11,776 nt of DNA, from NCBI GenBank assembly GCA_043799385.1, contig JAZDNV010000022.1:1-11776 (forward strand), written 5' to 3'. Below are positions 2,845 through 9,335 of this stretch, piece by piece. Positions within the stretch are counted from its first letter, which is position 1; each line of letters starts with the position of its first letter. Both the position numbers and the translations under genes were made by a program. Source of the DNA: Candidatus Aenigmatarchaeota archaeon (GTDB lineage Archaea; Aenigmatarchaeota; Aenigmatarchaeia; GW2011-AR5). The notes beneath the pieces were generated by a model. It saw only the letters and a program-made list of their open reading frames with translations. It was not told where the DNA came from and did no database searches.

Positions 2845-3029
2845 TTTTTGCACCCGATGAAAATGAACTAGTCAAATAAACGGATTCCAAAGCATTTAAA
2901 ACTTTGCGTGTAAAAAGAATGTAAATTGAGACTCTTTTTCTGCAATTTTATGAAATCCCACGATAGGGGAAAAGACAAAAGTTTTAAATATGTGACAGTG
3001 GTTAGTTGAAATAAGCGGAAGGTGATTTT

Positions 3030-3440
3030 ATCAAAAATTTCAACATCGTAAAACTGGATTCAAAAGGCCGTTTGATTCTTCCGTTTCACATACGCGATTA
3101 TTTTGGATTGCGCGGCGGGATGGAACTACTGATTACGAACAATGAAAAGAACGAGCTCAGGATATTTCCATTATTCAACGAAAAGACTGCAAAAATCAGG
3201 ATAACCATGACTGATGTTCCAGGAGCGATGTCAAAAATCCTTTCCGTTCTTGGCAAGAACAAGATAGATGTCATGATGAGCACTAGCCAGACAATAGAAA
3301 AAGGCAAGCTCGCTGAGTGGAACGGCATAGTCGACATCTCAAAGTGCAGAAACAAGAATATGAAAAAGCTCGAAAATGAGCTGAAGAACGTGGATGTTAT
3401 CAGAAAGGTCGATATATTGACAACAACAGGAAAGAAGTAG
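3030..3440 (+). CDS. AbrB/MazE/SpoVT-type DNA-binding domain fused to an ACT domain (paralog A)
   Basis: In-frame translation from 3030: IKNFNIVKLDSKGRLILPFHIRDYFGLRGG (AbrB/MraZ-like LDxKGRxxxPxxxR), then KIRITMTDVPGAMSKILSVLGKNKIDV (ACT motif). AGGTGA SD at 3020-3025 precedes ATC 3030; in-frame TAA at 3012. The start position is an inference. Confidence 0.8.
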   Translation: MKNFNIVKLDSKGRLILPFHIRDYFGLRGGMELLITNNEKNELRIFPLFNEKTAKIRITMTDVPGAMSKILSVLGKNKIDVMMSTSQTIEKGKLAEWNGIVDISKCRNKNMKKLENELKNVDVIRKVDILTTTGKK

Positions 3441-3445
3441 ACTAT

Positions 3446-3793
3446 TCATTGGTTTGTATTCAAAAACAGAATATCACGCTTCAATTTTTTTATGTCCCCA
3501 TCGTAATCCAGTATCGCCGACCACACCATCCTTTTTCTGATTGTGCCTATCTCGCTGCTCAGAACATCAATGCGATTTTTTCTCAGAAATTCTGACACGT
3601 CTTTAAGTTGGCCCGAATCCCTGAGCGTTATTTCAATCTTCCTCTTGTTGTTCAGCGGGATGACGTTTATCCCCTCGTTGCTGCTCACTTTAACCATAAA
3701 TTCATCGCCATTGTCTAGATTGAGCAGCTTCCTCAAGTAAAAAGGAATCGACACGCGTCCCTTAGAATCAAGCCTCGTGATGCCATGCTTCAT
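3446..3793 (-). CDS. AbrB/MazE/SpoVT-type DNA-binding domain fused to a degenerate ACT-like domain (paralog B)
   Basis: MKHGITRLDSKGRVSIPFYLRKLLNLDNGDEF is AbrB-like; KIEITLRDSGQLKDVSEFLRKNRIDVLSS aligns by eye with the ACT domain of paralog A. Confidence 0.8.
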   Translation of the reverse strand: MKHGITRLDSKGRVSIPFYLRKLLNLDNGDEFMVKVSSNEGINVIPLNNKRKIEITLRDSGQLKDVSEFLRKNRIDVLSSEIGTIRKRMVWSAILDYDGDIKKLKRDILFLNTNQ

Positions 3794-3876
3794 AGATTCA
3801 CTGTATCTATTACGATATTCGATTTTATATCCTTAATCCGTTAAAATTACAAAAATTACAAAAAACATCATTTTTT

Positions 3877-3891
3877 TGGAAAAATAATCCA
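3877..3891. promoter_or_regulatory. Putative Lrp/AsnC operator, site 1 (TGGAAAAATAATCCA)
   Basis: Imperfect 15-bp inverted repeat with an AT-rich centre, 14/15 identical to site 2; directly abuts a minus-strand TATA-like TTTAAAAA (3892-3899). Confidence 0.6.
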
Positions 3892-3930
3892 TTTTTAAAG
3901 CTTATTTCTCCCATGAAGCTGAAACTAATC

Positions 3931-3960
3931 TTTAAATATCTTTTTTGGAAAAATATTCCA
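3931..3960 (+). promoter_or_regulatory. lrp TATA box (TTTAAATA 3931-3938) and putative operator site 2 (TGGAA-AAATA-TTCCA, 3946-3960)
   Basis: Perfect 5-bp inverted arms; lies between the TATA box and ATG 3960, the usual autorepression position. Confidence 0.65.
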
Positions 3961-4382
3961 TGCTTTCGCAAAAAGATGTGAAAATTCTCAACATACTCGA
4001 GAAAGACTGCAAGCTTCCGAGCAAGAAAATCAGCGAAAGGACCGGTATACCGATAACCACTATTCACAACCGCGTGAAGAGGATGGAAGAGGACGGGGTA
4101 ATAAAGTCCTACCGCGCTGTTCTGGACAAGAAGAAGATAGGAAAACCGATACAGGCTTTCATCCATATATCTTTGAGCAACGTGGATTCGGCGTCAATCG
4201 GGAAAAAGATTTCAATGATGCCTGACGTCGATGAATGCTACATTTTGACAGGCACGACTGATATCCTTGTCAAGATATCTACGTCTGACGTTGACCACCT
4301 GAACAGTTTTGTCATGGGTAATATCAAGCCGATAAAGGGCGTTGAGAATACGCTGATATCGATTATCCTGAAAGAGATATAG
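3960..4382 (+). CDS. Lrp/AsnC family (feast/famine) transcriptional regulator
   Basis: LSQKDVKILNILEKD...ISERTGIPITTIHNRVKRMEEDGVIKSY HTH and ECYILTGTTDILVKI RAM domain. ATG 3960 preferred over TTG 3945 on TATA spacing. Confidence 0.95.
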   Translation: MLSQKDVKILNILEKDCKLPSKKISERTGIPITTIHNRVKRMEEDGVIKSYRAVLDKKKIGKPIQAFIHISLSNVDSASIGKKISMMPDVDECYILTGTTDILVKISTSDVDHLNSFVMGNIKPIKGVENTLISIILKEI

Positions 4383-4402
4383 CTTATCTGCTTTTGTTGG
4401 GA

Positions 4403-5752
4403 TTATGCAAGCAGCGAGTTTATCCTCTCGGCGAACGCTCTTTTTTCTGATTTCAGTGTTCTGTATTCGTTTACTATCTGCCTTTCAAGCCTGTTAACGC
4501 CAAGGTTTCCAGTTGTTCCGATATGCTTTTTCAGTTTTATGCTCTCTCTCGGGTCTATCTTGTCCAGTTTCATGAAATTGTATTCTATCTCCTTATGAGC
4601 GTCGCGGAAAGGAACGCCCTTTGAGACGAGCTCGAACGCCTTGTCTGCGGCAAAGATTTCCGGGGTGAAAGCAGCGATTAGTTTGTCTTCATTGACCTTT
4701 AGATCGTCGATAAGGTTTGCCATGATGTCAAGGCATGCGTTGACCGTGTTAAGGCTTTTCATCAGCGGCTCTTTGGTTTCCTGCAAATCGCGGTTATAGC
4801 CGGATGGCAGGTCCTTTACTATTCCTATCATCTGGAACAAAAAGGAAAAAACTTTGTTCCCTCTTGCACGGATTAATTCCAATACGTCCGGATTTCTCTT
4901 CTTTGGCATTATGCTTGAGCCTGTGCAGAACTCGCTTGGAATCTCGAAGAAATCAAACTCGTCTGCGCTGAATAATATCAAATCAGTTGACAGCCTGCTC
5001 AAGTCTATCATTACTTGCGATAGCGCTGATATCACGCCTGATTCTATCTTGCCTCGGCTGTTTGCAACGTATAAGACGTTGTTCTGGACCTTTTCAAAAC
5101 CGAGCAATTTTGTTGTAAACGATCGATCGATGTTCAACGGAACGCCGTAGCTTGCCGCTGAGCCCAGCGGATTTTGATTATTCAGCTTGTATGCGCATTT
5201 GACCATGATAAGATCGTCAAGCAATGCCTCTGCAAAGGACAGTATCCATAAACCGACAGAAGACGGCATTGCTTTTCTGAAATGAGTGTATCCCGGCATC
5301 GGTATGTCCTTATTCTTTTTGCCGAATTTTACAAGCGAATAGCACAGGTCAAGGATATTTTTTTCTATATCCAACATTTTTTCCTTTGTGTAAAGCCGCA
5401 TATCGAGCAGTATCTGGTCGTTCCTGCTTCTTCCTGCATGTATTTTTCTTCCGACTTCGCCTAGATGCTTTGAAAGGTGCGTCTCGACCTTTGTATGAAC
5501 GTCTTCTTCTTCAGGGGTGATCTTGAATTTGCCTTTTCTGTCCAGCGCTATTATTTCGTTCAGCGCTTTTTTCAGCCTTTTCAGTTCATCCTTTGATATG
5601 ACGCCAATCTTGTTGAGCATCGTCAAGTGCGCAATCGTCCCTATTACATCATATTTGACAATAAGCTGATCTAACAGAATATCCTCGCTTGCAGTAAATC
5701 TCTCCACTTTTCTTGCAGTTTCATTCTTGGCTTTACCGTTCCAAAGAGTCAT
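4403..5752 (-). CDS. argH: Argininosuccinate lyase
   Basis: EDVH, HAGRSRNDQ, MPGYTH, GSSIMPKKRNPD signature, GVPFRDAH. ATG 5752 (MTLWNGK) fits a minus-strand TTTTTATA near 5774-5782; the ORF-track TTG 5764 is the alternative. Confidence 0.95.
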   Translation of the reverse strand: MTLWNGKAKNETARKVERFTASEDILLDQLIVKYDVIGTIAHLTMLNKIGVISKDELKRLKKALNEIIALDRKGKFKITPEEEDVHTKVETHLSKHLGEVGRKIHAGRSRNDQILLDMRLYTKEKMLDIEKNILDLCYSLVKFGKKNKDIPMPGYTHFRKAMPSSVGLWILSFAEALLDDLIMVKCAYKLNNQNPLGSAASYGVPLNIDRSFTTKLLGFEKVQNNVLYVANSRGKIESGVISALSQVMIDLSRLSTDLILFSADEFDFFEIPSEFCTGSSIMPKKRNPDVLELIRARGNKVFSFLFQMIGIVKDLPSGYNRDLQETKEPLMKSLNTVNACLDIMANLIDDLKVNEDKLIAAFTPEIFAADKAFELVSKGVPFRDAHKEIEYNFMKLDKIDPRESIKLKKHIGTTGNLGVNRLERQIVNEYRTLKSEKRAFAERINSLLA

Positions 5753-5836
5753 ATAGATACTCAAAATCTATCGTATAAAAAAGGACTTAAAGGTTATTCT
5801 TCAGTGCTGTGCGGCGGTTGTAATTATAATTTTTTC

Positions 5837-5851
5837 TGAAAAATTTTTCCA
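5837..5851. promoter_or_regulatory. Putative Lrp/AsnC operator, site 3, in the argH/argG divergent region
   Basis: Reverse complement TGGAAAAATTTTTCA is 13/15 identical to site 2; includes the palindrome GAAAAATTTTTC (5838-5849); about 20 bp upstream of the argG TATA (TTTTTAAATA 5871-5880). Confidence 0.55.
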
Positions 5852-5901
5852 TTTCTTGCCGTTCCTGTCATTTTTAAATATTTTGTCATCCTATCAGAAA
5901 T

Positions 5902-7137
5902 ATGAAAGAAAAGGTCGTGCTCGCTTACAGCGGTGGACTGGATACTTCTGTCATTCTGCAATGGCTCATAGAAAAGGGTTATGATGTAGTTGCTTTTCTC
6001 GCCGATTTAGGACAAAAAGAAGATTTTGAAGCAGCGAAAAAGAAGGCATTGAAGATAGGCGCTTCCAAGGTATATATAGAAGACGTAAGGGAAGAATTCA
6101 TAAAAGATTTCGTATTCAAGGCGATAAAAGCAAATGCGATGTACGAAGGGCGCTATCTTTTAGGAACGTCCTTGGCAAGGCCGCTGATTGCAAAGAAACA
6201 GATAGATATTGCGAACAAGGAAAAGGCAACATTCGTCTCTCATGGCGCAACAGGAAAAGGCAACGATCAGGTGCGCTTTGAATTGACTTGTTACGCTTTG
6301 AAACCAGATATCAAGATAATTGCTCCTTGGAAAGAAGAGGAATACCTCAAAAGATTCCAAGGCCGCTCTGATTTGATAGATTATGCAAAGGCGCACGGAA
6401 TCCCTGTAAAGGCTACGAAAGACGAGCCGTGGAGCTCGGATCCGAATTTGATGCACATAAGTTATGAGGCAGGAGAACTGGAAGACCCTATGAAAAGGCC
6501 AAGGAATGGCATGTTTGAACTGACCGTATCGCCGAAGGACGCGCCTGACAAGGAAACGGAAATAGAGATAGAATTCGAGAAAGGCATTCCTGTTAGAGTC
6601 AGAAATCTGAAAGACGGAACGACAAAGAGTAAACCATTGGAATTATTTTTATATCTCAACGAAATCGGTGGCAAGAATGGCATAGGCAGAATCGACATGG
6701 TTGAGAATCGTTTTGTTGGCATCAAGTCACGCGGAGTTTACGAAACGCCTGGCGGAACGATACTTCACGCTGCTCATCGCGACTTGGAGGGCATAACGAT
6801 GGACAGGGAGGTCATGCACATACGCGACTCATTGATTCCTAGATTCGCCGAGTTAATTTATTACGGCTTCTGGTATTCGCCGGAAATGGAAGTGCTCATG
6901 GCGCTGATTGACAAAAGCCAGGAACATGTTTCAGGAAAAGTTCGTCTTTCATTGTACAAAGGAAACGTAATGGTAACCGGGCGTGAATCAAAAGAGTCAT
7001 TGTATGACGAAGCGCAGTCAAGCATGGACGTTTCAGGCGGTTATGATCAGCGCGACGCGAAAGGCTTCATAAAGCTTAATGCGATACGGCTGATAAACAA
7101 TACGTTGAGAAACCGCAGAATAAAGAAAAGATTCTAG
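5902..7137 (+). CDS. argG: Argininosuccinate synthase
   Basis: [12 protein letters not shown]-loop, [32 protein letters not shown] motifs; 411 aa. Confidence 0.97.
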
Positions 7138-8264: not shown

Positions 8265-9335
8265 TTAAGCGCGATAGTGCATCAATCTGTCGCCTATGCT
8301 TGGTTTCGGTTTGAAAAACTCCTCTATCGAACTGAAGTATTCTGGATGTTTCTCATATAAATCCGCTAATGTTTTTCCAATTCTTTCTTGTCCGTCCTTG
8401 TATGGCAGAAATCCCATCGGAGACCTCATTCTAGGTGATTCTGTCATGCCAAGCAAGTAAGCAGCAAAATTAACAGCCTCGGGATTCCTGAAGGTATCAT
8501 CTTTTACTAATAATTTCCTCTTACCAATTGATGCATAGTATTCAGGAATCGGGATTCCTACTATCTTGTTCAAACCAATTAGACTATCATCAATTTTCTT
8601 TGCTTCACTGTGTCTGCCATCTAATGCAAGTTCTGCCAACTTTGCATACACGCGGGGAAACATATTTGCCCAGACAGAAATTGCGCCAACGCCTTCTATC
8701 TCTGGGTCTGACATCATCCTGTACGTGTTCGGGTCGTCGCCTGATATCAACTTGAAGGCATGTTTGTTGAGACCATTTTTTCTAGCTTCCGCTCTTATCG
8801 CCTTCCAGAAGCTTGTCTCATCGTCGGTAGGTTTTGCCTTGCCTCCTGTCGAGTCTTTATTCCCTATTATATTGGGATATTCCATTGCAAGAGCGATCAT
8901 TATGTCAGGCTTTATAATCGGGTGTCCTCTCCCTGGGATGTTATAGATGATTACTTTGCATTCCGGAGCAGCCTCAGCGACTTTAGAGAAGTAATCGGCA
9001 AATCCCTGTTGGGAAGGGCAGTTGTAATAACCTGTTACGTGCAATGTCGCATATGCGCCCATGTCAGCTGCATGTTTTGTAGCATCCACACCCTCGTCAG
9101 GATTATTAGAACCGGCACCAGCAATTACAGGTACTTTTCCATTGGCTATTTTGATGGTTTCAGAAATATATCCTTTATGTTCTTCCCAATCTAAGGTAGG
9201 GCTTTGCCCTGTCGTGCCGCAAGGCACTAACCCGTGAATGCCGTAAGCGACTTGATATTCAACCAATTTTATAAAATCTTTAAAATTATCCGGTCTTATC
9301 AATGCGGTCATTGCGCCTTCGCATTTCTCAACCAT
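8265..9335 (-). CDS. dapA: DHDPS/DapA-family class I aldolase, probably 4-hydroxy-tetrahydrodipicolinate synthase, elongated
   Basis: GTTGQSPTL, PVIAGAGSN, GYYN, YNIPGR (catalytic Tyr, Arg), GNKDSTG (Schiff-base Lys), SGDD, GAISVWAN; 356 aa. Confidence 0.8.
   Translation of the reverse strand: MVEKCEGAMTALIRPDNFKDFIKLVEYQVAYGIHGLVPCGTTGQSPTLDWEEHKGYISETIKIANGKVPVIAGAGSNNPDEGVDATKHAADMGAYATLHVTGYYNCPSQQGFADYFSKVAEAAPECKVIIYNIPGRGHPIIKPDIMIALAMEYPNIIGNKDSTGGKAKPTDDETSFWKAIRAEARKNGLNKHAFKLISGDDPNTYRMMSDPEIEGVGAISVWANMFPRVYAKLAELALDGRHSEAKKIDDSLIGLNKIVGIPIPEYYASIGKRKLLVKDDTFRNPEAVNFAAYLLGMTESPRMRSPMGFLPYKDGQERIGKTLADLYEKHPEYFSSIEEFFKPKPSIGDRLMHYRA

Follow-up and report, generated by a model that had tools for sequence, protein, structure and literature searches.

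A palindromic candidate operator of Lrp at the lrp, AbrB-ACT and argH/argG genes of an Aenigmatarchaeota genome

Archaeal regulators of the Lrp/AsnC (FFRP) family recognize sites of the form abcdeWWWedcba, and the natural sites of FL11 (PH1519, the lysine/arginine-binding FFRP of Pyrococcus OT3), TGAAAWWWTTTCA, are located in the FL11 promoter itself and in a promoter for amino-acid biosynthesis, as described in PMC2715240. Two further arrangements are described in PMC2995911. LrpA of Pyrococcus furiosus represses its own gene from an operator just downstream of the TATA box and over the start, where recruitment of RNA polymerase is blocked while TBP and TFB still bind, and LysM, Ptr2 and Ss-LrpB activate a neighbouring metabolic gene from a dimer site upstream of its TFB recognition element (BRE)/TATA. 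The stretch of DNA analysed here, termed the window, has a length of 11,776 nucleotides and is the entire contig C7 (JAZDNV010000022.1) of a Candidatus Aenigmatarchaeota archaeon genome (G000; 786,014 bp, 31 contigs, 91% complete, 43% GC). It carries an Lrp/AsnC gene, lrp, together with genes for two AbrB-ACT regulators (ACT1 and ACT2) and the divergent argH and argG genes, and a 15-bp palindrome, TGGAA-N5-TTCCA with the 13-bp core GGAAA-WWW-TTTCC, recurs in the ACT2/lrp and argH/argG divergent regions. We put the probability at roughly 70% that this palindrome is the operator of Lrp, used for autoregulation and for predicted control of argH/argG and of one AbrB-ACT gene, ACT2.

The ACT2/lrp divergent region contains site 1 (TGGAAAAATAATCCA, 3877-3891), which covers positions -83 to -69 relative to the lrp ATG, and site 2 (TGGAAAAATATTCCA, 3946-3960), a perfect-arm palindrome spanning -14 to +1 of lrp between its TATA box and ATG. 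Site 3 (5837-5851; TGAAAAATTTTTCCA on the plus strand, reverse complement TGGAAAAATTTTTCA) is placed in the argH/argG divergent region of 149 bp. The first-pass annotation of this DNA had reported a 15-bp near-palindrome at exactly these three positions, and the observation is confirmed. With at most one mismatch allowed, the pattern TGGAAAAATWWTYCA matches three times in the window compared with 0.02 matches expected from 200 dinucleotide shuffles, none of which reaches three. The whole genome holds four matches, namely sites 1-3 and a site on contig C25 (C25:44983-44997), and the reversed pattern, which served as the control for palindrome counts, has none. A matrix trained on the three window sites only, and then applied to other genomes, scores the four sites at 19.2-22.3 with the next best score in the genome being 16.2, showing that the motif does not occur at background frequency. 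Six lower matrix matches were inspected (scores 12.3-16.2, including four at 15.6-16.2), and by crude open reading frame (ORF) calls all are within coding sequence, C25:53287 being where a membrane protein begins (MKKFFI) and C25:99035 lying within an ORF; these were set aside as chance matches and not taken as further operators. The shuffles, the genome count and the gap in matrix score rule out that the motif arose by chance or from low-complexity sequence.

The motif TTTAWATA peaks genome-wide at -32 to -29 from the start codons (717 genes), and the transcripts are therefore mostly leaderless. The lrp TATA box (TTTAAATA, 3931-3938, plus strand) is located at -29 from the ATG as a leaderless promoter, and site 2 borders this box on the downstream side and covers the lrp start, which is exactly the placement of the LrpA operator; it is from this position that an LrpA-type mechanism is proposed. 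The same sequence, TTTAAATA, forms the argG TATA box (5873-5880, plus strand) at -29 from the argG ATG, and a TATA-like box for argH (TTTTTATA, 5774-5781, minus strand) is found at -29 from the argH ATG. Site 3 extends from -65 to -51 relative to the argG ATG and from -99 to -85 relative to the argH ATG and is therefore upstream of both boxes, with 21 bp between the site end and the argG TATA, so the upstream position earlier ascribed to it stands. This placement resembles that of the LysM/Ptr2/Ss-LrpB type, although 21 bp is beyond the "few base pairs" from the TATA box given in PMC2995911, and activation would be proposed here by analogy of position. The geometry of site 1 depends on the ACT2 promoter. 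A TATA-like box, ATATAAAA (3823-3830), is present at -37 from the ACT2 start with site 1 located 46 bp upstream of it, and an alternative box, CTTTAAAA (3893-3900, minus strand), would put site 1 on its downstream side only if that box is the promoter, giving a 77-nt leader. It is more likely that site 1 is upstream of both promoters, with ACT2 read from the nearer box ATATAAAA. The description of sites 1 and 2 as both lying downstream of divergent TATA boxes is thus correct for site 2 and applies to site 1 only with the more distant promoter.

Conservation was followed in 61 related genomes. Of 16 lrp orthologues in other genomes, 10 have a matrix score of at least 12 in the 200 nt upstream, and in G000 this score is reached by 3 of 727 upstream regions; the binomial significance of this enrichment is overstated, as the relatives are kin and not independent. 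The layout of TATA, 4-9 bases, palindrome and ATG is repeated at lrp in five genomes (G004, G007, G040, G056 and G050), the lrp site likewise comes after the TATA box in G187 and G277, and second upstream lrp sites are present in G007, G002, G025, G187 and G277. Perfect TGGAAWWWWWTTCCA sites number 23 in the 61 genomes compared with 7 for the reversed control; of these 23 sites, 7 directly adjoin lrp. Of 15 perfect palindromes away from lrp, 8 fall inside long ORFs. Short ORF calls or intergenic DNA account for the other 7, with a tandem repeat array (G038) and a probable tRNA (G060) among these locations, and the palindromes revealed no second target in common. The array in G038 (contig C31, L029:2525-2664) contains TGGAATAAAATTCCA three times inside intergenic tandem repeats of 58-67 bp and is a repeat element rather than the promoter of an lrp gene. 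The proposal that Lrp controls its own gene is upheld to the extent that the palindrome behaves as a predicted lrp operator, having the FFRP form, the appropriate TATA placement and retention at orthologues across genera and families.

The lrp gene (3960-4382, plus strand) encodes a protein of 140 amino acids with an HTH_24 domain (55.6 bits, E 3.8e-15) and an AsnC_trans_reg (RAM) domain (55.9 bits, E 4.1e-15), both over cut-off. The protein scores below all NCBIfam equivalog cut-offs (LysM NF040947, 70.3 against 180 bits; AsnC, 69 against 227; Lrp, 61.8 against 233; LrpA NF040820, 59.1 against 250), and is therefore no LrpA equivalog. Among solved structures, that of FL11/PH1519 is the closest (E 6.8e-23), and the alignment with it is free of gaps over the DNA-binding half. 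Both proteins have the palindrome form abcdeWWWedcba with an A/T centre, bases c-e (AAA) and a His at position 39 in common. The C25 site, TGGAAAAATTTTCCA, matches this form perfectly and sites 1-3 deviate at 1-2 positions. Differences occur in the outer bases, which are GG here and TG (natural sites) or CG (the SELEX optimum) in FL11, in the contact residues 34-37, where the window protein reads P-I-T-T and FL11 reads A-E-S-T, and in the target, predicted as argH/argG here and being lysine genes in FL11. The recognition segment IPITT[IV][HFY]NR is conserved in 13 of 18 lrp orthologues, and the other five vary at one position (V, T or C).

The argH gene (4403-5752, minus strand, ATG at 5752, N terminus MTLWNGKA) encodes argininosuccinate lyase (TIGR00838, 371.4 bits, over cut-off) and argG (5902-7137, plus strand) encodes argininosuccinate synthase (NF001770, 581.6 bits, and TIGR00032, 506.7 bits, both over cut-off). 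Convergence of argH with lrp is seen in G000 and also in G004, G187 and G277. A survey with argG as the query (argH was not used) finds this gene in 4 of the 61 relatives and, class-wide, in 8 of 301 genomes, with 75-77% identity across two families. The genomes G187 and G277 (one genus, family f22, 47-54% GC) contain AbrB-ACT, lrp, argH and argG genes whose order and orientation match those of the window. All matrix matches of at least 13 in the 11-kb loci of both genomes fall in the two divergent spacers, with one high-scoring palindrome each in the argH/argG spacer (TGGAAAGCTTTTCCA in G187 and TGGAAAATGTTTCCA in G277), placed downstream of a TTTAAATA box, and the relaxed pattern occurs genome-wide at 2 places in G187 and 4 in G277. 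The palindromes in both divergent spacers of these genomes therefore point to a conserved link between Lrp and argGH, though this link is missing in G004. Control of argGH by Lrp, as earlier proposed, is accordingly borne out in part, by a site in the argH/argG spacer in three genomes of two families, and not in G004; likewise the survey of synteny recovers the full cluster in two families and finds the AbrB-ACT genes mostly without argG. In G004 lrp is convergent with argH, and argG is located 8 kb away behind an ornithine carbamoyltransferase (OTC) gene. The G004 argG promoter (L010:17240-17345) has two long inverted repeats, TAGTGGACCAACAAAAG...CTTTTGTTGTCCGCTA and AGTGAACCAAG...CTTGGTTCACT, in place of the Lrp palindrome, which suggests that argG may be under another regulator in that genome.

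The ArgR C-terminal domain (PF02863) has no match in G000, at 91% completeness, and the control search matches 8 of 14 reference genomes, in agreement with the ArgR-independence claimed for this locus. For OTC (TIGR00658) the best score in the same genome, 104.9 bits, falls short of the cut-off of 280.85, arginine deiminase (TIGR01078) gives no match and carbamate kinase (TIGR00746) reaches 25.6 bits, below cut-off; OTC is present in G004 and G187. G000 as assembled would therefore convert only citrulline and aspartate to arginine, an assignment as the sole route that is provisional at this completeness. The argG and argH genes look like an orphan pair in G000. The term arginine regulon used in the first-pass annotation is not sustained, as only two genes would belong to it. 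Among the titles and abstract openings covered by the literature search, no work on an archaeal Lrp controlling argG was found. The circuit had also been put forward as one of an undescribed kind, and this does not hold: Lrp-type control of neighbouring amino-acid genes is already described in PMC2995911, the mechanism of an Lrp operator placed both at the regulator gene and at adjoining amino-acid genes is well known, and what is new is its appearance in a little-studied lineage.

In the proposed mechanism Lrp would bind the TGGAA-N5-TTCCA palindrome as its operator. When Lrp occupies site 2, TBP and TFB would still seat and RNA polymerase would be kept out, so that lrp would be negatively autoregulated in the manner of LrpA. 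Three more places are predicted to be bound by this protein, namely site 1 in the ACT2 region, site 3 between argH and argG and the fourth site on C25, and argH, argG and ACT2 would thereby be tied to the amino-acid state sensed by the Lrp RAM domain. Binding by Lrp, and specifically by this paralogue, is inferred from the comparisons given above. The sign of control at the arg genes is a guess, with the upstream site activating in G000 and argH being repressed in the f22 genomes, and the analogy with FL11 provides arginine or lysine as leads only for the effector.

Several observations weigh against the assignment of the palindrome to Lrp and to the arg genes. Six of the 16 orthologue upstream regions score below 12. 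The contact rules in PMC2715240 relate Thr at FL11 position 36 to T at base b and Thr at position 37 to T at base a, and the window Lrp has Thr-Thr at these positions where the motif has G-G, such that only bases c to e fit; the rules explain these bases and not the outer GG and were rejected as a means of assigning the binder. A second Lrp paralogue (C11:2614-3057, minus strand) is 41% identical to the window Lrp overall and has the recognition segment IPTTTIHNR, one residue apart from IPITTIHNR. The ATG of its gene is abutted, behind a TATA box, by TGGAATAGTTATTCCA (TGGAA-N6-TTCCA, within C11:2614-3073), which has the same TGGAA/TTCCA arms. The near-identical recognition segment and similar operator arms mean that cross-talk between the paralogues is possible, and if this paralogue or mixed oligomers were the main occupants of the sites, the result would be cross-regulation and not simple autoregulation. 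All four sites and the conserved orthologue sites have the N5 spacing, however, the sole N6 site in G000 is at the paralogue's own gene, and the N5 site travels with the window-lrp orthologues across genera, making this explanation quite improbable. The palindrome could instead belong to an AbrB-ACT protein, as AbrB-type proteins are DNA binders and ACT2 divergently adjoins the sites in ten genomes. In G007 (90% complete) two sites accompany lrp and no AbrB-ACT gene was found with either query, which favours Lrp and disfavours AbrB-ACT as the binder; G004 keeps the site at lrp with the AbrB-ACT genes 4 kb away, the ACT1/ACT2 pair of genus g10 is without upstream palindromes, the ACT1 promoters of relatives have direct (G)TGGG(A) repeats in their place, and the motif itself is of FFRP form. 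An AbrB-ACT operator is for these reasons very hard to sustain.

The remaining points concern the arginine link. The position of the arg site varies, being 21 bp upstream of the argG TATA in G000 and 17-23 bp from the argH ATG in G187 and G277, and the latter two, as members of one genus, amount to one independent lineage and not two. In G004, which is of the same family as G000 and the nearest genome to place lrp beside argH, neither argH nor argG has a site (best score at most 0.1). The C25 site has no clear adjoining target, the nearest plausible one being a gene for a 49-amino-acid zinc-ribbon protein 268 bp downstream. Taken together these could mean that autoregulation of lrp alone is real, with site 3 and the C25 site being non-functional copies or having another role. 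Set against this, site 3 is one of only four sites in 786 kb, and the homologous spacer in the other family holds one of the 2 (G187) or 4 (G277) places found genome-wide, and we consider the loss of the arginine link from the picture unlikely. The preferred reading of the palindrome as an Lrp operator with argH/argG among its predicted targets is retained.

The two AbrB-ACT genes differ in their relation to the palindrome. ACT1 (3030-3440, plus strand) encodes an AbrB/MraZ-like and ACT regulator of 136 amino acids with a probable ATC start behind a GGTGAT Shine-Dalgarno sequence. The ACT profile PF01842 is over cut-off (31.9 against 27 bits), MraZ reaches 19.6 against 23 bits (E 8.9e-4), NF006352 matches with E 6e-26, and homologues carry PF04014. 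The N terminus xKNFNxVKLDSKGR corresponds to an AbrB/MraZ-type hairpin and is encoded only with the ATC 3030 start, which is the one implied by the coordinate in the first-pass annotation, as the next canonical start, TTG 3072, would remove this conserved DNA-binding hairpin. Of 17 orthologues, 14 have ATG, GTG or TTG at the codon homologous to ATC 3030, and G010 (L051) likewise has ATC. In the AlphaFold2 (AF2) model (predicted local distance difference test, pLDDT, 82) the C-terminal half has an ACT fold, with Foldseek matches to ACT domains at a root mean square deviation (rmsd) of 1.7-2.4 over ~80 residues. The best whole-chain Foldseek match, alongside the ACT domains, is NikR, and the model is consistent with a NikR-type architecture of DNA-binding head and ACT-like sensor; at the sequence level no relatives are found in the Protein Data Bank (PDB). 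ACT2 (3446-3793, minus strand, 115 amino acids) encodes an AbrB and ACT regulator and matches AbrB TIGR01439 (31.4 bits against a cut-off of 28.3), MazE_antitoxin (E 2e-4) and NF006352 (E 2e-11). Its ACT domain is weak (17.7 against 27 bits, E 0.003), and it aligns over its full length with ACT1, with the D-x-K-G-R hairpin motif invariant in the alignment. The divergent arrangement of ACT2 and lrp in ten genomes includes G025, G031, G014, G022, G008, G040, G187 and G277.

The AbrB-ACT proteins, with their weak MraZ and AbrB profile matches, are closest to the MraZ, AbrB and SpoVT swapped-hairpin regulators. MraZ has a DXXXR DNA-binding motif and binds three GTGG[A/T]G repeats according to bioRxiv 10.1101/2022.02.09.479790; the D-x-K-G-R hairpin recalls the former and the (G)TGGG(A) boxes resemble the latter. 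In a difference from MraZ, which has two tandem MraZ/UPF0040 repeats, the AbrB-ACT proteins have a single hairpin domain and one ACT domain. No paper naming both "AbrB" and "ACT domain" was found in the literature search. The boxes occur as 3-6 direct (G)TGGG(A) copies between the TATA box and the start of ACT1 orthologues (L049-L052, L057-L059, L009 and L056), and at least three TGGG boxes are present upstream of ACT1 orthologues in 10 of 18 loci compared with 1 of 736 background regions. No TGGG box is present in the ACT1 promoter of the window, where a TATA box at 2983 is followed by a leader, and the region upstream of ACT1 (2854-3035) has no matrix match of at least 4 and no Lrp site. By its predicted promoter elements ACT1 is a neighbour that has control elements of its own, and it does not belong to a second tier under the Lrp operator. 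The idea of AbrB-ACT factors under Lrp survives for ACT2, which shares its intergenic region with a site, and fails for ACT1. Homologues of ACT1 are present in 27 of the 61 relatives compared with 4 of 61 for argG, and the AbrB-ACT genes are therefore not arginine-specific partners. The fusion represents a conserved, unnamed candidate family of sensor-regulators with its own repeat element.

The site at C25:44983 is followed by a 16-bp palindrome, TGGGAATTTTTTCCCA (45007-45022), and by a TTTAAATA box at 45030, and a GTG 30 nt past this box opens an ORF of 32 codons. The zinc-ribbon gene downstream (C25:45265-45411) has a second copy in G000 at C23:967-1080, and the family is characterized by a length of 47-49 amino acids and the pattern CC...C..C...VY.KK...P.L.DD, with no Pfam match. 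In relatives (L005:2051-2194, L012:1922-2065 and L013:1736-1879) the zinc-ribbon gene is either directly divergent from lrp (G025, G031, G014, G007 and G002) or upstream of ACT2. No tRNA was found in a search of the C25 locus, and Rfam gave no match near the gathering score for the window or this locus. A further conserved Lrp-type palindrome occurs at homologous places in G187 (contig C24, L063:2483) and G277 (contig C19, L064:2457), flanked by one gene for an ArsA/Get3-like ATPase and one for a prefoldin-like protein, with no obvious target nearby.

Genes of the asparaginase type recur beside lrp genes. The second Lrp paralogue of G000 is convergent with a GatD/asparaginase-family gene (C11:1260-2612), and a type-I-asparaginase-like gene, below the NCBIfam cut-off, is beside lrp in six relatives (L005:2946-4202, L009:1572-2765, L008:774-1990, L016, L006 and L007) and forms an operon with ACT1 in G017 and G025. 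In G022 this gene follows lrp and has a perfect palindrome 4 bp upstream of its TATA box, an upstream placement like that of the LysM/Ptr2/Ss-LrpB type, and a related N4 palindrome is present at the asparaginase-like gene of G008.

To our knowledge, there has been hardly any study of how DPANN-type archaea control transcription. The four sites, with a defined regulator and a predicted promoter geometry, provide a concrete candidate operator for these organisms, and through them an Lrp regulator would be connected with the final two reactions of arginine synthesis in a genome where ArgR was not detected. The comparative support is strong enough to warrant a simple binding or transcription experiment. 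A broader and decidedly tentative proposal is that lrp, its operator, the AbrB-ACT genes and divergent argH/argG form a self-contained cassette of patchy distribution for regulated citrulline-to-arginine salvage, in which AbrB-ACT would be a new MraZ-like class of amino-acid-sensing factor wired to Lrp in two layers, with the 49-amino-acid zinc ribbon as a partner. If true, the cassette would give ultra-small archaea a regulated step of citrulline-to-arginine salvage.

A search with Lrp as query against metagenome and genome contigs gave only distant matches (29-35% identity), with the named genome records among them all bacterial. Among sequencing runs no RNA data set matches, and the sole run with matching DNA is a groundwater metagenome (X1), the contigs of which are short, of low depth and uninformative on the sites. 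Elsewhere in the window, positions 8265-9335 hold a DHDPS-family gene of 356 amino acids that scores 170 bits, below the DapA equivalog cut-off of 206, and is solitary, with no other lysine-pathway gene within the window. Profile searches also identify archaeal genes in the window, namely those for TFS, diphthamide synthase and endonuclease dU.

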